Notes: generated by a model not told the origin, from the sequence alone. 13,117 bases of DNA from Escherichia coli (GCF_003334815.1 NZ_QOWO01000058.1), one strand, 5' to 3'; numbered from the stretch's first letter, positions 504 to 8,815 are shown. A program made the numbers and translations.

Positions 504-3203
504 GTGAATGCAGTCATTCCGAAAAAGAGAAGGGACGGCAAGTCTTCGTTCGAAGACCTGGTGTCCTACGTCTCTGTCCGGGATGACATGACCGATGAGG
601 AACTGAATTTATCTTCTTCTTCGCAGGCTGAACAACCGCACCGGAGCCGCTTCAGTCGTCTTGTTGATTATGCAACACGCCTTCGAAATGAATCATTCGT
701 GGCACTGGTTGATGTCATGAAGGACGGCTGCGAATGGGTTAACTTTTATGGTGTGACCTGTTTTCACAACTGTACATCTCTTGAAACTGCCGCTGCAGAT
801 ATGGAGTACATTGCACAGCAGGCACACTATGCGAAAGATAATACTGATCCTGTTTTTCACTACATTCTTTCCTGGCAGGCCCATGAAAGCCCGCGTCCGG
901 AACAGATTTATGACAGTGTACGCCATACCCTGAAATCTCTCGGGCTGGGTGAACATCAGTATGTCTCTGCCGTGCATACCGATACTGATAACCTGCATGT
1001 TCACGTTGCGGTCAACCGGGTGCATCCGGTTACAGGTTATCTCAATTGCCTTTCATGGAGTCAGGAAAAACTCAGCCGTGCCTGCCGTGAGCTTGAACTG
1101 AAGCATGGTTTTGCTCCGGATAACGGTTGCTGGGTCCATGCGCCGGGAAATCGTATCGTTCGCAAAACTGCCGTTGAACGTGATCGCCAGAACGCTTGGA
1201 CACGCGGAAAAAAACAAACTTTTCGCGAGTATGTTGCGCAGACAGCGGTAGCTGGTTTACGCAGTGAACCTGTACATGACTGGTTATCCCTGCATCGTCG
1301 TCTTGCTGAAGATGGTCTGTACCTGTCTCAGATGGACGGAAAATTTCTGGTGATGGATGGCTGGGATCGCAACAGGGAAGGTGTACAGCTTGACTCGTTT
1401 GGCCCTTCCTGGTGTGCAGAAAAACTCATGAAAAAAATGGGTGACTACACGCCAGTACCAAAAGACATTTTCAGCCAGGTGGAAGCACCAGGACGCTATA
1501 ATCCGGACTTCATTGCAGCTGATGTTCGCCCGGAAAAAATCGCTGAAACAGAAAGTCTGCAGCAGTATGCCTGTCGTCATCTTGGAGAACGTCTGCCGGA
1601 AATGGCACGGGAAGGACGGCTGGAAAACTGCCAGGCTATTCACCGCACACTGGCTGAAGCGGGATTATGGATGCGTGTTCAGCATGGTCACCTGGTTATC
1701 TGTGACGGTTATGATCATAACCAGACTCCCGTTCGTGCTGACAGCGTATGGTCACTGCTGACGCTCGACAATGTGAATCAACTCGATGGTGGCTGGCAGC
1801 CTGTACCAACAGATATTTTCCGCCAGGTTACGCCAACAGAACGCTTCCGTGGTCGTCGTATGGAGAGCTGTCCTGCGACCGATAAAGAATGGCACCGTAT
1901 GCGTACAGGTACGGGGCCGCAGGGGGCTATCAAACGCGAACTGTTTTCTGACAAAGAAAGTCTGTGGGGATACAGCATCAGCCATTGTAGCCCTCAGATT
2001 GAAGAAATGATCACACAGGGTGAGTTTACCTGGCAGCGTTGTCATGAGCTGTTTGCACAACAGGGACTGATGCTACAGAAACAACATCACGGGCTTGTTG
2101 TCGTTGATGCCTTTAATCATGAGCAAACGCCGGTGAAAGCCAGCAGCATTCATCCTGATCTGACACTGGGGCGTGCGGAGCCACAGGCCGGACCTTTTGT
2201 GAGTGCCCCAGCAGATTTGTTTGACAGGGTGCAACCTGAAAATCGCTATAACCCGGAGCTGGCTGTCAGTGACAGGTACGGGGTCAGCAGTAAACGTGAT
2301 CCAATGCTGCGCCGGCAGCGACGTGAAGCCAGGGCTGAGGCCCGTGCTGACCTGCGTGCCCGCTATCTGGCATGGCGTGAACAATGGCGTAAACCAGATC
2401 TGCGTTATGGGGAACGTTGTCGGGAAATTCATCAGGCATGCCGTCTGCGGAAGTCACACATTCGTGCGCAGTACGATGATCCGGCATTACGTAAGCTGCA
2501 TTATCACATTGCAGAAGTTCAGCGAATGCAGGCATTGATCAGGCTGAAAGAAGACATCAGGGATGAGCGACAGAAACTTATTGCTGACGGGAAGTGGTAT
2601 CCACCCTCTTACCGTCAGTGGGTCGAAATTCAGGCTGCTCAGGGAGACAGGGCTGCTGTATCGCAGCTGAGAGGCTGGGATTATCGCGATCGCCGTAAAG
2701 ACAAGTCACGCACAACGACGACAGACCGCTGTGTCGTGCTTTGTGAACCGGGCGGAACGCCGGTATACGGTAATACCGGTGATCTCGAGGCCCGTCTGCA
2801 GAAGAACGGGAGTGTTCGTTTCCGTGACCGTCGGACGGGAGAGTTGGTCTGTACGGATTATGGTGACAGGGTTGTTTTCCGTAATCACCATGACCGCAAT
2901 GCGCTGGCAGATAAACTAGATTTGATTGCACCTGTATTGTTTGAGCGTGATCCCAGAATGGGCTTTGAACCAGAAGGAAACGATGGACAGTTTAATCAGG
3001 TCTTTGCTGAAATGGTGGCATGGTACAATGTGACGGGATTCTCTGAACATGGAAATTACGTTATTACTCGACCGGACGTAGATCAGCACAGGGAAGTGAG
3101 TGAGCGGGGCTATCGCAATTACATGGATAGTAACACTTACAGAGATGGAGCTCAGCCAGTTCAGGATAGTGAGAATCGCTGGGAACCTCCAACACCGGTG
3201 TAA
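504..3203 (+). CDS. nikB: Conjugative relaxase NikB (MOB-P family), 899 aa
   Basis: GTG start at 504 with GAGGA (492-496) upstream; stop TAA 3201-3203. Contains the MOB-P histidine-triad motif HTDTDNLHVHVAVNRVHP (compare RP4 TraI HxDxxxxHxH) and an N-terminal Tyr-containing region (DLVSYVSV). The 899-aa length agrees with R64 NikB. Confidence 0.93.
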   Translation: MNAVIPKKRRDGKSSFEDLVSYVSVRDDMTDEELNLSSSSQAEQPHRSRFSRLVDYATRLRNESFVALVDVMKDGCEWVNFYGVTCFHNCTSLETAAADMEYIAQQAHYAKDNTDPVFHYILSWQAHESPRPEQIYDSVRHTLKSLGLGEHQYVSAVHTDTDNLHVHVAVNRVHPVTGYLNCLSWSQEKLSRACRELELKHGFAPDNGCWVHAPGNRIVRKTAVERDRQNAWTRGKKQTFREYVAQTAVAGLRSEPVHDWLSLHRRLAEDGLYLSQMDGKFLVMDGWDRNREGVQLDSFGPSWCAEKLMKKMGDYTPVPKDIFSQVEAPGRYNPDFIAADVRPEKIAETESLQQYACRHLGERLPEMAREGRLENCQAIHRTLAEAGLWMRVQHGHLVICDGYDHNQTPVRADSVWSLLTLDNVNQLDGGWQPVPTDIFRQVTPTERFRGRRMESCPATDKEWHRMRTGTGPQGAIKRELFSDKESLWGYSISHCSPQIEEMITQGEFTWQRCHELFAQQGLMLQKQHHGLVVVDAFNHEQTPVKASSIHPDLTLGRAEPQAGPFVSAPADLFDRVQPENRYNPELAVSDRYGVSSKRDPMLRRQRREARAEARADLRARYLAWREQWRKPDLRYGERCREIHQACRLRKSHIRAQYDDPALRKLHYHIAEVQRMQALIRLKEDIRDERQKLIADGKWYPPSYRQWVEIQAAQGDRAAVSQLRGWDYRDRRKDKSRTTTTDRCVVLCEPGGTPVYGNTGDLEARLQKNGSVRFRDRRTGELVCTDYGDRVVFRNHHDRNALADKLDLIAPVLFERDPRMGFEPEGNDGQFNQVFAEMVAWYNVTGFSEHGNYVITRPDVDQHREVSERGYRNYMDSNTYRDGAQPVQDSENRWEPPTPV

Positions 3204-3228: not shown

Positions 3229-3801
3229 ATGGCTTATGTCGATGATTTTAAAGAAGCAATAATCAGGACTCGGCGGTTACAACTTGCGCAACCCGTTGAT
3301 TTATGTGAGATGCATACTCGCATAATGAACGATAAACGAATCCGCCATTTGGGAGGAATTATACGTCCTGTACTGGATCTGAATTCTGGGTATGAACAAC
3401 TGGTTGCGCGATGTATGCCTGTTCATCTTCAAGCCAGACCTTTGGTTGAAGAATGGCTGGGATGTCCTGTTTATTTTACGTTGGGATGGATTGATGATGG
3501 GACCCCAAAAGGTATGTTCAGGTTTGATGAGGACTTTATTACTGATACATTGAAAAATGGTTATACAGGAGATACTGTCAATCTTCATGCATGGCTAACT
3601 TTACCTAGTATGGAAATTATAGATATCACATTATCAACAACAATTTCTATGTTGCAGGGGCATAAGAATCAGTTAGGCGGTGTTATTATCAAGAGAGCTG
3701 ATGATATTAAAGGCTTCTCATATAAGCCAATGCTTATTGGTGATGAATTCCTGTTAAAATCTGGTATATTGCATAAGTTTACATATCTAGAATTGAACTA
3801 G
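3229..3801 (+). CDS. Hypothetical protein, 190 aa, hydrophilic, no recognised domain
   Basis: ATG at 3229 with GGGAG (3218-3222) 6-7 nt upstream; the longer ORF-track start at 3100 overlaps the nikB 3' end and has no RBS. Stop TAG 3799-3801. AT-rich codon usage like the adjacent microcin island. Convergent with mcpB. Confidence 0.6.
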   Translation: MAYVDDFKEAIIRTRRLQLAQPVDLCEMHTRIMNDKRIRHLGGIIRPVLDLNSGYEQLVARCMPVHLQARPLVEEWLGCPVYFTLGWIDDGTPKGMFRFDEDFITDTLKNGYTGDTVNLHAWLTLPSMEIIDITLSTTISMLQGHKNQLGGVIIKRADDIKGFSYKPMLIGDEFLLKSGILHKFTYLELN

Positions 3802-3850
3802 TGTTTTTTAAATAAACTGGTTTTTTGACGTTCTTATCTCTGTTCAGAAA

Positions 3851-6040
3851 TCACCTCCTGTTGGGATGATTATTTATATTATGAGTTCTGACAGGTCGAT
3901 ATTTTATTTCCGAAAAGTGACCATCTCTCAGATACAGAACTCTGTCTGCGGATGCTATTGTTTCTGGTCGATGAGCTATTAACAGAACAGGAATTCCGAG
4001 TTGGCGTAATGTCTGGCTTATTTCTATTTCACTTTCCACATCAAGATGACTGGTTGCTTCGTCCAGTAATAATAGACTAGGTTTTTTATACAGTGCTCTT
4101 GCCAGTAGAATACGTTGCTTCTGACCACCGGAAAGTCCCCCCCCGGTTTCTCCAAGCAATGTTTGATAGCCCATTGGCATTGCCATAATATCACTGTCTA
4201 TAAGTGCCAGACTTGCGCATTTACGCATGTGTTCATGATCTCTAATTTCGCTAAAAAACATTATATTATCAGCTATAGAACCTTTGAAAAGATAGTCATC
4301 TTGCAATACAGTGCCAATTCGTTGACGAACCTGAAAATAATCAGAATGTGTATGTGGTATGCCAAATGCATTAATTCTTCCTTCACTGGGTGTATGAATC
4401 CCAAGAATAAGCTTTACCAATGTTGATTTGCCACATCCTGATTTACCTGTTATTGCTAATATTTCTCCAGGAAAGAGCATTAGTGACGCGTTATCCAATA
4501 TGGGTTTATCTGCGCCCTTATGGCTAAATGTTATTTTTTCGATAAGTAATGGTGGATGGGTATTATCATATTTATGTTCTCTGTACTGGCTTGCAGATAT
4601 TGTTTCATTATGGTTTGCCCAATGGTGCTGATTCTGGTGACCTTCCTGTGGTGTTAGCACAATATCGGCAAGTCTCTCGTTATAAACATCAAGCATGCGC
4701 CAGGAAAAAAAGTTATCAGTCAGATTGCTTATACTGGATGAAAAACGCATCTGATAGGATAAGTAAGCAACCAACATACCCACGGTAAATGTCCCATCCA
4801 GCACTTCTACTGCACCCTGCCACAAAATAATGGCTGAAACTACACTTTCCGTCAGTGTATGCGTCAGCTCATAGCTCATTTGTAAACGATTCTGGCGTAG
4901 CTGTGTGTTTCTGCGGGTAACGTTGAGGTTCAGCCAGGCCGCTTCTCTGTGAATAGTTACACCGTTGATTCTCAGACTCTGAATGCCGTTAAGGGTTTCG
5001 AGAAAATGCCCCGACTCCTTAGTTCCTGCATCCCAGACATCTTCAACAGATTGCCGTAAAGCCGGATACCACAATGCTCTCAGTGCGCCATATATAATAG
5101 CTGCAATTACTGCGATTAATGTCATTCCTGGACTATACAACAGCATCATGCAAAGAGCAGTCACAATAAGTAGCATATCCAGAATGCCTTCAAGAACCTG
5201 CGTTGTCAGCGCCTGCTGGATTATATCTACTGCTTCAAAACGGGCATTAATACTTCCTTTACTTCGGGCATCGAACCATGCAAGAGGGAGTCTTACAAGA
5301 TGATGGAAAACTCTGGCAGTCCATTGCATGTTAAAATTGACTGATAAACTGATCGTTGCCCATTGTCGTGCCAGGGAGAGTAATAATTGTATGAGTGATA
5401 ACAACAGTAGTGCCACTATAATGACATACAACAGACTTCTGTCTGCTGCAACCAGAACTTCATCAATTACCAGTTGATTAAGAAGTGGACCACCTAAAGC
5501 CAGAATCTCAAGGGCCAGAGCAAAAATAATAATTTTTGTCATTGATGCTAAAAGCCCCGGGGTTTTCCCTGTCAGTTGGCGCAGGTGGATTTTTTTTCTC
5601 TCGTTCCGGGGGGTGAAATCACTGGCTGGAGTTAATTCCAGTGCCACTCCTGTAAAATGCTTACCTGCGTCCAACAGACTTATTGTAATTTTTCCTCTGT
5701 CCGGATCATGGATGTATAACCGGTTTCCCCGAACTTTATGGAGAACGACGAAATGGTTCATATCCCAGTGCAGAATAGATGGAAGATTAAGACACCTCAG
5801 ATCTTCGGGTTCCAGACGAACTGCACGTGATGATAAATGGATGGACGCTGCACATTCGATCAACCTTTGTAGCGTCATTCCCTGAATACCTATATTGAAA
5901 CGTTCCCGTAATGTCGATAAATCTGTTTTCAGTCCATGCCAGCAGGCAATCATAGCCAGACACGCCAGACCGCATTCAGCTGATTCGGTTTGACGGATAA
6001 CGGGTAGTTGTTTCCTTACTTTCCAGTTTATTGATTCCAT
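3851..6040 (-). CDS. mcpB: Microcin ABC exporter with N-terminal C39 double-glycine peptidase domain (CvaB-like)
   Basis: C39 peptidase motifs (QTESAECGLACLAM catalytic Cys, HFVVLH His), a transmembrane domain, Walker A GKSGCGKST, ABC signature LSGGQKQR, Walker B LLLLDEATS, H-loop IAHR. Start chosen at the ATG 6040-6038, which overlaps the upstream gene stop as TAATG and has a GGA-containing SD (AAAGGAAA). The ORF-track start at 6088 adds 16 aa and lacks an SD. N-terminus aligns with CvaB (PVIxQTExAECGLACLAM). Confidence 0.92.
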   Translation of the reverse strand: MESINWKVRKQLPVIRQTESAECGLACLAMIACWHGLKTDLSTLRERFNIGIQGMTLQRLIECAASIHLSSRAVRLEPEDLRCLNLPSILHWDMNHFVVLHKVRGNRLYIHDPDRGKITISLLDAGKHFTGVALELTPASDFTPRNERKKIHLRQLTGKTPGLLASMTKIIIFALALEILALGGPLLNQLVIDEVLVAADRSLLYVIIVALLLLSLIQLLLSLARQWATISLSVNFNMQWTARVFHHLVRLPLAWFDARSKGSINARFEAVDIIQQALTTQVLEGILDMLLIVTALCMMLLYSPGMTLIAVIAAIIYGALRALWYPALRQSVEDVWDAGTKESGHFLETLNGIQSLRINGVTIHREAAWLNLNVTRRNTQLRQNRLQMSYELTHTLTESVVSAIILWQGAVEVLDGTFTVGMLVAYLSYQMRFSSSISNLTDNFFSWRMLDVYNERLADIVLTPQEGHQNQHHWANHNETISASQYREHKYDNTHPPLLIEKITFSHKGADKPILDNASLMLFPGEILAITGKSGCGKSTLVKLILGIHTPSEGRINAFGIPHTHSDYFQVRQRIGTVLQDDYLFKGSIADNIMFFSEIRDHEHMRKCASLALIDSDIMAMPMGYQTLLGETGGGLSGGQKQRILLARALYKKPSLLLLDEATSHLDVESEIEISQTLRQLGIPVLLIAHRPETIASADRVLYLRDGHFSEIKYRPVRTHNINNHPNRR

Positions 6041-7293
6041 TACAGATTTCCTTTCATGCTCCATAGTGGCTCTGTCAGCCATTCCCATAAATGACGAGTA
6101 TCAAGGTTGACGTCTCCTTCCAGAGTCATGCCTGGTCTTAGCGGTTCTTTTTTTCCGTATGCAAATATAAATGTATTTTCAGGCTCAACAATAACGCGAT
6201 AATGCCCTTCGTTTTCTTTCCATGTGACGGGTGAAACTGGTAATAAGTCGGAAGGAGCCAGAGTCGTATGACTGATTTCACGAATTGTGCCGTACTGGAT
6301 ACCAAATTTCTGATAAGGGAAGGCCGAAAACTTCAGAGATACTCGTTGACCTGGTCGGATAAAACCGGCTTTCTGGCTGGTAGCATAAAGCTCAATTTGT
6401 AAATGAGCATTATCGGGAATGAGAGTCATGACCGGTTCTGATGCTTTCACAGACTGCCCCTGTTTGATCAGTACAGCAGCAATAGTCCCGGATACTGGAG
6501 CCCTCAGTGTAAATTTTTCTTGTCCGGCCAGTTCATCCTGTTGTTGTTTTAGCACCTGCAATTGTCTGTCGAGTTCTGCTTTACGGCTTTTCCCCTGAAC
6601 AATAAGATGATTTAGTTCATCTTTGGCTGTGTCCATTGCAGTATGCAACTGGAGAAGCCCCTGACGCTGATCTTCAACGTTTTGTTGAGCGGCAGAAACA
6701 TCAATTTGTTTCTGTTGGAATTCGATATCTGACACATAATGCGTACCAGCCAATTTTTTATAGCGTTCCATGACGGATATAGCCAGTTCTGCCTGACGTT
6801 CAGCAAGCTGAAGTCTTTGTTCTGCACTTCTTATTTGTGGCTCAAGTGATACCATCCTTTGCCGTATGGCTTCCTGTTGTTGACTATTATCTCGCGACTC
6901 AAAGGATTGCTGGGAGGCCAGCATGATAGACTGGGTTTTCAGGGAAATACTCATCGTTGCTAATGTGCCAGTTCCGTTACCGTTATAATGTTCTCCACTT
7001 ATATGATAGAGTTGTGTCCCTGCAGTTACGTGTTCTCCTTCGGATACAGTCAGTTGTGTTACATATCCTGCATATTGAGGAATTATTTTTACCAGTCCTG
7101 ATGAGGGCATGACGATACCTGTAAGATGCGCTTTCCTTGTATAGCTACCGTAATAGATGAATACAGTCAGACTTAACATAATGAATAATGTAACTGTTGC
7201 ACATACGGATAGGCTAAATGATGTTGGTAAAATAATGTCACCATATTCAGTGTCATTATGATGTTCTATTGCTTCACTTCTGAATATATTCAT
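6040..7293 (-). CDS. mcpD: HlyD/CvaA-family membrane fusion protein for microcin export
   Basis: N-terminus MNIFRSEAIEHH aligns with CvaA MFRQDALENRK, followed by a single TM helix and a long coiled-coil Q/E-rich periplasmic region. Start taken as ATG 7293-7291; the ORF-track start at 7329 is a TTG with no SD. Stop TAA 6042-6040 overlaps the mcpB start. Confidence 0.88.
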   Translation of the reverse strand: MNIFRSEAIEHHNDTEYGDIILPTSFSLSVCATVTLFIMLSLTVFIYYGSYTRKAHLTGIVMPSSGLVKIIPQYAGYVTQLTVSEGEHVTAGTQLYHISGEHYNGNGTGTLATMSISLKTQSIMLASQQSFESRDNSQQQEAIRQRMVSLEPQIRSAEQRLQLAERQAELAISVMERYKKLAGTHYVSDIEFQQKQIDVSAAQQNVEDQRQGLLQLHTAMDTAKDELNHLIVQGKSRKAELDRQLQVLKQQQDELAGQEKFTLRAPVSGTIAAVLIKQGQSVKASEPVMTLIPDNAHLQIELYATSQKAGFIRPGQRVSLKFSAFPYQKFGIQYGTIREISHTTLAPSDLLPVSPVTWKENEGHYRVIVEPENTFIFAYGKKEPLRPGMTLEGDVNLDTRHLWEWLTEPLWSMKGNL

Positions 7294-7395
7294 TCTTTTT
7301 AATACAATAACTAACCTTTCTGTCAACAAGAGGGGTTGGTTGAATAATATTGATATTTGATATACATCTTACCTGTGTGATGTTAAAGTTTTATA

Positions 7396-8031
7396 CTATA
7401 ATATATTTAACAATATAACAAAGCCGTTTATCCCCGCATGTAACAGCATTGGATAGAAAATCCCCTTACTGCAAATTCTTATATTCAACAATAACATTGA
7501 CATAATAAACAGAATAATTTGATCAGCTACATTATAATACTGCGGATGCATCAGGCAGAAAAATAAAGATGTACACACGCAGGGGGTGAATAATTCTTTT
7601 TTATAAGTCGCACATAGAAGGCCGAATAAACATGTTCGGTAAACAATTTCTTCATAATACGGAACTATCAGGACCAGTATAAATATTTCAATCCAATTAA
7701 GTGAAGTTGATTCACTATTGTTTAAATTGTCTCTATAAGCAAAAATAAGCAGTTGCATGAGAGCAATTACAGCAAATGATATTACTAATAGCTTTAATGT
7801 TTTCGCATTTGTCTTTATGGTGATTTTACAACCTGGTATTCTTCTTAAGTAAAAAATATAAAATGAAGTTGATATTAAAATTTCAGTAATAAAGACAAAG
7901 GAAAATGCCAGGTCCAAACCAATATATTGTATGGTGAATGCTGGTGTGAATATCACAACTGTTGATATAACAACAAGTAGAAGAAACGCTATCGCATTAT
8001 CTTTGCTGTATTTATATATGTTATCATTCAT
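7396..8031 (-). CDS. mcpA: CPBP-family (CAAX protease / Abi-like) intramembrane metalloprotease homologue, 211 aa
   Basis: Polytopic membrane protein with the three CPBP motifs: EExxxR (EEIVYR), FxxxH (FFCLMH) and HxxxN (HAGIN). Very AT-rich. ATG at 8031-8029 lies 4 nt after the mcpI stop (TAG 8038-8036). Confidence 0.85.
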   Translation of the reverse strand: MNDNIYKYSKDNAIAFLLLVVISTVVIFTPAFTIQYIGLDLAFSFVFITEILISTSFYIFYLRRIPGCKITIKTNAKTLKLLVISFAVIALMQLLIFAYRDNLNNSESTSLNWIEIFILVLIVPYYEEIVYRTCLFGLLCATYKKELFTPCVCTSLFFCLMHPQYYNVADQIILFIMSMLLLNIRICSKGIFYPMLLHAGINGFVILLNIL

Positions 8032-8035
8032 AATG

Positions 8036-8236
8036 CTATTTCGCGGAGATTGTTCTTATTTTTTCTATGATATAGTCCATGAATCTTGCTGTGGAAAAAA
8101 GAGTGATCAGCATGACTACAATCTTTGAAAACTCGGAAGGGAGTGAAAACCAGTATAAATCAATAACAGAGGAGCCACTCAATAGCGCAAATCCCAGTAA
8201 CAAACCACATATAAAGGAAAGTAATTTAATAAACAT
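8036..8236 (-). CDS. mcpI: Small two-helix membrane protein, probable microcin immunity protein (66 aa)
   Basis: Small hydrophobic ORF immediately downstream of the precursor gene, the usual position of class II microcin immunity genes. Start chosen at ATG 8236-8234 (MFIKLL...) because GGAGG lies 8-9 nt upstream; the ORF-track start at 8251 would add 5 aa (MEGAT). Confidence 0.7.
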   Translation of the reverse strand: MFIKLLSFICGLLLGFALLSGSSVIDLYWFSLPSEFSKIVVMLITLFSTARFMDYIIEKIRTISAK

Positions 8237-8260
8237 AGTAGCGCCCTCCATTATATCTAT

Positions 8261-8623
8261 TTATCGGTTACATGTTCCGCCAACATTATTACCTGAACAA
8301 CTACTGGAACTTCCTCTGTTACCACATCCATTTCCACTACCATGATCTGAGAGACATTGACCAACAACGGCTCCACCAATGGTACCTCTTGCCATTCCTA
8401 TGGGACCTCCTTTGATCGCACCACCAATCATTCCACTAAATACAGCGTTAGCGCATTTTACAGTGCTTGGATCACTATAAATATGAGTTGGTGCGTTTCG
8501 ACCCAGTGAGTTACGAGCCCCACTGGAACGCTCATTACGGGGGCCACCTTCAAAGTTGCTGTTTGCGTTTCCTCCGCTGACAAGCGTTATCTCATCTAAA
8601 GTTAATTCTCTTATACCTGCCAT
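8261..8623 (-). CDS. mcpM: Class II microcin precursor with double-glycine leader (120 aa), matches microcin PDI McpM from memory
   Basis: N-terminal leader MAGIRELTLDEITLVSGG has the ExLxxxExxxVSGG double-glycine pattern ending at G17-G18, with a second GA site at G35/A36. Gly-rich mature region with GxxxG-like repeats (GGAIKGGPIGMARGTIGGAVVG) and Cys at 57, 90, 100, 109, 118. SD GGGGAAA upstream of ATG 8623-8621. First gene of an operon ending in a C39-ABC exporter. Confidence 0.88.
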   Translation of the reverse strand: MAGIRELTLDEITLVSGGNANSNFEGGPRNERSSGARNSLGRNAPTHIYSDPSTVKCANAVFSGMIGGAIKGGPIGMARGTIGGAVVGQCLSDHGSGNGCGNRGSSSSCSGNNVGGTCNR

Positions 8624-8780
8624 ATCATATTTCCCCTATTGGTTGTTTGTTATTTTGTGCGTTCAAGATAGCCAATAACAAAAATGTAATGAAAGTGAAA
8701 TTGTGTGATTAAATGTAAATATGTGAAAATATTTGTATGTTCTTGAGGTTGTGTGATTACAAAAATATCATCGTGTGAAG
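8624..8780 (-). promoter_or_regulatory. AT-rich promoter/operator region of the microcin operon
   Basis: About 160 bp AT-rich leader between the trbC terminator and the mcpM start. Read on the - strand it contains five TTYAC-type half-sites phased at about 10 bp (TTTCAC, TTTACA, aaTCAC, TTTCAC, aTTACA; + coordinates about 8685-8728). On the + strand TTGTGTGATTA occurs twice (8701-8711, 8749-8759). Exact -35/-10 not assigned. Confidence 0.5.
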
Positions 8781-8808
8781 ATATAAAACCGTGCCAGGGC
8801 TGGCACGG
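8781..8808 (-). terminator. Rho-independent terminator downstream of trbC
   Basis: Perfect 9-bp stem CCGTGCCAG (8789-8797) / CTGGCACGG (8800-8808) with a 2-nt loop; on the - strand it is followed by TTTTATAT (8788-8781). Lies 8 nt after the trbC stop codon (8816-8818). Confidence 0.7.
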
Positions 8809-8815
8809 CCTCTGT

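Follow-up and report, generated by a model that had tools for sequence, protein, structure and literature searches.

Microcin PDI (MccPDI) was described in Escherichia coli strain 25, and its proximity-dependent and OmpF-dependent killing of other E. coli, including O157:H7 and O26, is known from this strain only (PMC5311971, PMC6795089). The MccPDI precursor McpM is cleaved at G17G18 and then at G35A36, a process for which both McpB and McpD are required (PMC5311971), and according to the MccPDI literature the chromosomally encoded TolC completes the export channel. The published McpM has four cysteines; its activity depends on Cys57 and Cys90 but not on Cys109 or Cys118 (PMC5311971). Here, we analysed a five-gene locus at positions 3851-8623 on the minus strand of a 13,117-nucleotide stretch of E. 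coli DNA (GCF_003334815.1, NZ_QOWO01000058.1), the whole of which is called the window in the following. Judged by its sequence, the locus very probably constitutes an MccPDI system (we put the probability at roughly 0.92), i.e. a class IIa production, immunity and export module, with a frequently occurring natural variant of the toxin gene. MccPDI is an already described system and the copy in the window is intact and resides at the usual location on an IncI1 plasmid, so that it is not new in kind.

The next relative after MccPDI is microcin S (MccS) of E. coli G3/10, which is encoded on plasmid pSYM1 by the genes mcsS-mcsI-mcsA-mcsB. Its locus is homologous to that in the window and comprises a 120-amino-acid precursor with a duplicated leader, a CPBP protein, an HlyD-type adaptor, a C39-peptidase ABC exporter and an McpI-like open reading frame (ORF). 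Identities to the window proteins amount to 79% for the toxin, 54% for the CPBP protein (McsI compared to McpA), 81% for the adaptor McsA and 79% for the exporter. MccS differs in its location on an IncX plasmid in a Tn3 neighbourhood and in its published immunity gene, which codes for the CPBP protein and not for the small protein: the MccS paper counts four genes and presents McsI, a CPBP homologue, as the immunity factor (PMC3316575).

Features that the window locus has in common with the colicin V/microcin V system (CvaA-CvaB-TolC) and with class IIa microcins in general are the plasmid location, a dedicated immunity protein that is small and membrane-bound, and export that depends on TolC and on an adaptor of the HlyD type, with a double-glycine leader removed by the C39 domain of the peptidase-containing ABC transporter (PCAT). 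In contrast to these, the window locus has two consecutive leaders instead of one and an extra CPBP gene, and in the literature MccPDI is distinguished by OmpF as receptor and by regulation through OmpR, where the colicin V system employs a TonB-dependent siderophore receptor and iron regulation. In class II bacteriocin loci of Gram-positive bacteria, CPBP/Abi immunity proteins with CPBP motifs are encoded beside double-glycine bacteriocin genes. McpA of the window resembles these proteins in having the three CPBP motifs and in adjoining a double-glycine bacteriocin gene, but differs from them in that the MccPDI papers give it a role in synthesis or activity and leave immunity to McpI.

Results and discussion

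Identification of the locus

McpM and McpI showed no significant match to a family in Pfam, NCBIfam, PHROGs or PADLOC, so that the two were identified by exact-sequence look-up and pairwise identity. By look-up, the 71-amino-acid form of McpI from the window has exactly the sequence deposited as McpI (AFN88381.1; UniRef I7B2X3, 'microcin immunity protein'), and the deposited McpM (AFN88382.1; I6ZU90) is exactly the allele of plasmid Plm (NC_019097). The precursor in the window is identical to AFN88382.1 at 117 of 120 residues. Compared to the proteins of Plm, identity is complete for McpI (71/71) and reaches 117/120 for McpM, 208/211 for McpA, 414/417 for McpD and 726/729 for McpB, the latter three corresponding to 98.6-99.6%. 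UniRef names point in the same direction, with 'microcin activity protein' for McpA (A0A2P9EMW6, identical), 'microcin HlyD secretion family protein' for McpD and 'microcin secretion/processing ABC transporter' for the McpB of the window.

All 18 residues that were mutated in the published study (R5, E11, V15, S16, G17, G18, N19, G26, G27, S33, G35, A36, R37, G41, C57, C90, C109 and C118; PMC5311971) are found at the same positions in McpM of the window. Five primers published for strain 25 could be placed on the locus. Without exception they are perfect matches to Plm; against the window, three are perfect and the other two show a single mismatch each, one of which is the single-nucleotide polymorphism underlying S100C. 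One of the E. coli-25 primers falls inside trbC, 470 nucleotides upstream of mcpM, which places the type locus at the same IncI1 site. The window shares with MccPDI of strain 25 all five genes, their order and the nikB-trbC site, together with both cleavage sites and the four cysteines. The differences, namely N3G, D31E and S100C in McpM, three substitutions each in McpA, McpD and McpB, and four substitutions in the distal OmpR-binding segment, define no different system.

An earlier note on this DNA had proposed microcin PDI on an IncI1 backbone, encoded on the minus strand in the order precursor, small immunity-like membrane protein, CPBP protein, HlyD protein and C39-ABC exporter. This proposal is borne out: the ORFs lie where they were expected, the domains confirm the order, the small membrane protein in its 71-amino-acid form is the deposited McpI, and the flanks are of IncI1 type. 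The comparison with published proteins, which the same note had suggested, returned a precursor clearly similar to McpM. Its fallback, a new relative of MccPDI, did not hold up, as the allele in the window is already widespread in databases. That the locus is real coding sequence and not a chance arrangement follows from the recurrence of a 4950-nucleotide stretch at 95-100% identity in 65 PLSDB plasmids; four more plasmids show it only in the 60-80% band (69 in total). A search of the whole window against Rfam at gathering thresholds gave no match.

The toxin precursor and its allele

The gene mcpM (8261..8623, minus strand) was called as an ORF and assigned by its identity to AFN88382.1. It encodes a precursor of 120 amino acids with a first leader at residues 1-18 (ending in G17G18), a second leader at 19-36 (ending in G35A36) and a mature peptide at 37-120, for which we computed a length of 84 amino acids, a mass of 8.1 kDa, an isoelectric point of 9.35 and a glycine content of 23%. 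The mass falls in the range of about 5-10 kDa that characterises class IIa microcins. Length, both cleavage sites, Cys57 and Cys90 are as the earlier note had described them, yet the match to the published toxin is not complete. N3G lies in the first leader, D31E in the second, and S100C in the Gly/Ser-rich C-terminal tail of the mature peptide, where it adds a fifth cysteine. The cysteines of the window protein are at positions 57, 90, 100, 109 and 118, the last three of which the earlier note had not mentioned. At codon 100, primer mcpM_int_R reads AGT (Ser) in strain 25, while the window has TGT.

The five-cysteine allele is not rare; it is a common variant and at least as frequent as the allele studied in the laboratory. 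Among the 60 PLSDB plasmids carrying mcpM, 25 belong to the window type (at least 99% nucleotide identity), and six of these 25 have an mcpM identical to that of the window in nucleotides. Two of the non-identical members were translated; one encodes the same protein, and the second carries V114A in addition. In the other 35 of the 60 plasmids, mcpM is 98.3-98.9% identical to that of the window in nucleotides. In a large collection, the exact McpM protein of the window occurs on at least 1000 contigs and the reference allele on 641. Given its presence on this many contigs and on 25 of 60 PLSDB plasmids, the window allele is evidently being maintained. Further combinations were found as well, with N3/D31/C100 on IncF plasmids from mouse E. 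coli and S3/D31/G100/N107 on an IncK2/Z plasmid. Residue 100 is thus Ser, Cys or Gly among plasmids (AGT, TGT or GGT), the changes affecting the first codon position. In the tblastn search with McpM, the low-complexity filter removed residues 95-120; site 100 was read from the translated loci instead.

Between the window and Plm, mcpM differs by four non-synonymous and no synonymous nucleotide changes, which fall in three codons, compared to nine non-synonymous and 42 synonymous changes in the other four mcp genes together (one-sided Fisher test, p = 0.002 by nucleotides and p = 0.009 when the three mcpM codons are counted). This clustering of amino-acid changes hints at diversifying selection on the toxin, the counts being small.

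Does the window then encode a functionally diverged relative of MccPDI, in which the substitutions, and Cys100 in particular, alter disulfides, multimers or the recognition of OmpF and thereby potency or range? Of the alternatives considered, this one survives best. Besides the excess of non-synonymous changes in mcpM and the variability of residue 100 across plasmids, the odd number of cysteines leaves one of them unpaired, and S100C lies in the C-terminal part, to which the uptake function of class II microcins is ascribed (PMC13174018). However, two of the three changes fall in leader peptides that are removed, and the exchanges C109A and C118A in the same tail were without effect on function (PMC5311971). 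McpI is identical to the reference, so that cross-immunity is to be expected, the corresponding residue of microcin S is Gly, which argues that the site tolerates change, and the substitution counts are very small. On balance, we regard functional divergence as improbable and favour an MccPDI system with a natural toxin allele.

Processing, export and regulation

Downstream of mcpM, four further genes follow on the minus strand: mcpI (8036..8251), mcpA (7396..8031), mcpD (6040..7293) and mcpB (3851..6040). From mcpM to mcpB, the distances between neighbouring genes are 9, 4, 102 and −4 nucleotides, the 102 nucleotides being a non-coding gap between mcpA and mcpD (7294..7395).

The gene mcpD encodes a membrane fusion (periplasmic adaptor) protein of the HlyD family. 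Its longest ORF (6040-7329) would give 429 amino acids from a TTG codon, while the RefSeq start, an ATG at 7293, yields 417 amino acids. McpD matches TIGR01843, the model for type I HlyD adaptors (E = 1.4e-38), and has one N-terminal membrane anchor (hydrophobic segment 20-50). For the PCAT gene mcpB, the longest ORF (3851-6088) corresponds to 745 amino acids, but a length of 729 amino acids is more likely, with the RefSeq ATG at 6040, which overlaps the mcpD stop codon by 4 nucleotides (ATGA). Pfam assigns Peptidase_C39 to residues 12-140, ABC_membrane to 170-435 and ABC_tran to 515-664 of McpB, and an alignment with PCAT1, a bacteriocin transporter of solved structure (4RY2; E = 3e-80), covers the full length of the protein. 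From the aligned motifs ECGL, HWDMNHF and HDP we presume a catalytic triad of C23, H96 and D112. The ATPase motifs are intact (Walker A at 532-539, LSGGQ at 636-640, Walker B at 656-661 and the H-loop at 689-691).

The mcpM promoter lies in the intergenic region between trbC and mcpM (8624..8815, minus strand). In strain 25, expression of mcpM, mcpI and mcpA is increased at low osmolarity and needs EnvZ/OmpR, and phosphorylated OmpR binds between −10 and −210 upstream of mcpM, with binding segments from −61 to −134 relative to the mcpM ATG and a core from −81 to −102 (PMC5311971). Mapped from these published positions, the OmpR-binding segments correspond to 8684-8757 in the window and the core to 8704-8725. 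Over positions −1 to −215, the window differs from Plm at nine sites, while the stretch from −61 to −102, which includes the segment required for OmpR binding in strain 25 (PMC5311971), is identical to Plm, a plasmid with the reference-type allele. The promoter block ATTTACATTTAATCACACAATTTCACTTT is largely kept in pSYM1, too. By direct reading of the sequence, we found a hairpin rich in G+C (8789-8808) just behind the trbC stop codon, with a run of T residues following it on the minus strand. A consensus scan for promoters and terminators gave 28 promoter-like sites compared to 18.8 expected and singled out neither the real promoter nor the trbC hairpin, and was therefore not relied on. The non-coding region upstream of mcpD gave no gel shift with OmpR and mcpB showed a different expression pattern; a second, OmpR-independent promoter for mcpDB was proposed in the mcpA-mcpD gap (PMC5311971). 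AI-2 signalling also contributes to MccPDI (PMC5743794).

These features speak to the possibility that the locus is decayed or silent and is carried passively by the plasmid, yielding no active microcin. Natural knock-outs do exist elsewhere (IS3 insertions in three plasmids and copies shorter by one base in two), and the MccPDI phenotype is condition dependent (PMC5311971). In the window, however, all five reading frames are full length, the catalytic and nucleotide-binding motifs are all present, the core promoter is unchanged, and the four non-toxin genes have mostly synonymous changes, as under purifying selection. We hence consider decay very unlikely.

That the locus encodes microcin S instead of MccPDI can practically be dismissed: although gene order, precursor length (120 amino acids) and the double leader are the same and the MccS precursor is approximately 80% identical to McpM, the proteins of pSYM1 reach 79/54/81/79% identity compared to 97.5-100% for those of MccPDI, DNA identity to pSYM1 is 69-74%, and pSYM1 is an IncX plasmid with Tn3 while the window is of IncI1 type.

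Some points weigh against equating the window locus with MccPDI of strain 25 in every respect. Three residues of the toxin differ and the fifth cysteine lies in the presumed uptake tail, and potency or range of the toxin could differ for this reason. In the promoter, four substitutions (−107, −119, −121 and −132) fall in the weaker OmpR segment from −102 to −134. At the nucleotide level, Plm stood in as a proxy for the locus of strain 25. Finally, the need for OmpF in the target cell, the membrane damage that is thought to result and the protection of the producer by an McpI multimer are taken second-hand from reviews (PMC6795089, PMC10233263).

McpI, McpA and immunity

The gene mcpI (8036..8251), assigned by identity to AFN88381.1, offers two starts, an ATG at 8251 (71 amino acids) and an ATG at 8236 (66 amino acids). 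A GGAGGG Shine-Dalgarno sequence, located within the first five codons of the 71-amino-acid ORF, precedes the ATG at 8236 by 8 nucleotides, which makes the shorter form more likely; 66 amino acids is also the length given by most gene callers. Hydrophobic segments span residues ~3-32 and 44-62. A plus-strand ORF of 88 amino acids at 8079-8345, annotated in Plm, was rejected as a gene, being antisense to the experimentally supported mcpI. Hypothetical ORFs antisense to the mcpI region are annotated in both Plm (6279-6545, minus strand) and pSYM1 (6328-6579, minus strand). The gene tables of most RefSeq plasmids have no feature under mcpM or mcpI, while pSYM1 does have mcsS annotated. Since RefSeq annotation usually omits the toxin and immunity genes, annotation-based surveys undercount MccPDI.

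The gene mcpA (7396..8031) encodes a homologue of CPBP/Rce1-like intramembrane glutamic proteases of 211 amino acids and has the lowest G+C content in the locus (0.305). Pfam gave an Rce1-like match at residues 111-203 (E = 1.4e-13), while the NCBIfam CPBP models stayed below their cut-offs. All three CPBP motifs are intact: EEIVYR at 127-132 (EExxxR), FCLMH at 158-162 (FxxxH) and HAGIN at 198-202 (HxxxN). The earlier note had called McpA a CPBP membrane protease; its published role is one in 'synthesis/activity' and not a demonstrated protease step.

But, which of the two proteins protects the producer? The MccPDI papers label mcpA as a gene for 'microcin synthesis' or activity and assign immunity to McpI. 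According to the MccPDI strain table, mcpM point mutants were expressed alone in an mcpM mcpA double knockout. In this background, McpM cleavage was normal for the tested residues outside both cleavage motifs, and inhibition by variants in these residues was approximately at wild-type level, except for N19 (PMC5311971). In pSYM1 (NC_019013), we found an unannotated ORF of 65 amino acids at 6389-6586, on the plus strand, which is that of the locus, with a GTG start and a GGAGG ribosome-binding site. It is located between mcsS and mcsI, begins at the equivalent of McpI M6, and its product is identical to McpI at 49 of 66 positions (74%). Based on the MccS cloning primers, this small ORF is contained in the 'mcsS' clone pAZ9 but not in the protective clones pAZ8 and pAZ13. 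The MccPDI and MccS loci each encode an McpI-type protein and a CPBP protein, and each literature credits a different one. The simplest reading is that both proteins contribute to protection, and McpA would most likely act as a second protective factor rather than as a maturation enzyme. The more general idea that the MccPDI/MccS family uses two protective proteins and has its toxin gene under diversifying selection is put forward as a tentative possibility, which we rate as rather doubtful.

Plasmid context and distribution

According to the IncI1-type annotation of an identical plasmid segment, the locus is flanked by nikA and nikB on the plus strand and by trbC, trbB and trbA on the minus strand. 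IncI1 plasmids that lack the locus have the stop codons of nikB and trbC 36 base pairs apart, with a hairpin between them. The nikB and trbC ends are found in approximately 1630 PLSDB plasmids, of which 52-69 carry the insert. The inserted island extends from ~3204 to ~8801 (5.6 kb) and has a G+C content of 0.40 compared to 0.50-0.51 in the backbone. It contains the five mcp genes and a gene for a 190-amino-acid protein, and genes for siderophore attachment or heavy modification are not among its content. At the island edges, no transposase or insertion sequence was seen, a dedicated search for terminal repeats not having been part of the analysis.

Among 5426 complete E. coli genomes, 49 have the locus, with all 53 occurrences on plasmids. 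The mcp genes also occur on IncF plasmids of mouse E. coli, beside Tn3 remnants, and the segment common to the IncI1 and IncF copies (3782-8782) delimits a portable core of 5.0 kb from which the gene for the 190-amino-acid protein is excluded. The mcp region of the window is identical to that of NZ_LT985321, with 174 mismatches over the entire 13-kb window.

The gene for the 190-amino-acid hypothetical protein (WP_000332079.1; 3229..3801, plus strand, RefSeq) is convergent with mcpB, has a G+C content of 0.384, belongs to a cluster of 216 members and is absent from the mouse IncF copy of mccPDI. Its product gave no match in Pfam, NCBIfam, PHROGs or PADLOC. In the adjacent region 3125-3203, nikB departs strongly from its counterpart in empty-site IncI1 plasmids over its last ~26 codons, while the rest of the alignment is 94% identical. 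An island boundary inside nikB, as the diverged last 80 nucleotides might suggest, was considered and rejected, the gene being an allelic variant of the same length (899 amino acids). The nikB 3' end looks allelic or recombinant rather than shaped by the island.

Disrupted copies of the locus were observed in five plasmids (NZ_OY754445, NZ_CP074123, NZ_CP160110, NZ_CP030282 and NZ_CP043828), three with an IS3-family insertion inside the locus and two with a copy shorter by one base. In the latter two, mcpB is missing from the PLSDB gene table, yet it is listed in the RefSeq annotation. McpM/McsS-like precursors with 82%, 67-71% and 37-48% identity were found on 68 further Enterobacterales plasmids, including plasmids of Citrobacter, Klebsiella, Enterobacter, Serratia and Rahnella, and many of these precursors are unannotated or labelled hypothetical. 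The McpM/McsS family is broader than the two named microcins.

Proposed mode of action

The mechanism outlined here is carried over from published work on the near-identical E. coli-25 locus, from which we infer the activities in the window. Since every sequence feature for the individual steps is present, the locus is expected to work as in strain 25. At low osmolarity, phosphorylated OmpR bound upstream of mcpM would turn on mcpM-mcpI-mcpA, with an additional contribution of AI-2 quorum sensing, and a separate promoter would drive expression of mcpD and mcpB. The C39 peptidase domain of McpB is predicted to recognise the 120-amino-acid precursor via its double-glycine leader. As both cuts need McpB and McpD, cleavage should accompany export: the precursor would be cut after G18 and then after A36 on its way through McpB, McpD and the chromosomal TolC. 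The released glycine-rich basic peptide would then engage the OmpF porin of neighbouring E. coli cells, reach the periplasm and permeabilise the membrane, for which it would need Cys57 and Cys90, probably for the formation of disulfide-linked multimers. The producer would be protected by the small membrane protein McpI and, to judge from the homology of McpA to McsI, most likely by this CPBP protein as a second protective factor.

Implications

MccPDI belongs to the few class IIa microcins whose receptor is known (OmpF) and which act against enterohaemorrhagic E. coli, and it moves on conjugative IncI1 plasmids, which are common in livestock and human isolates. The mcpM allele used in laboratory work is just one of several that circulate. 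If McpA turned out to be a second immunity factor, the G3/E31/C100 allele might represent a toxin variant of different function, with altered disulfide-linked multimers or an altered OmpF range, whose spread equals that of the studied allele.

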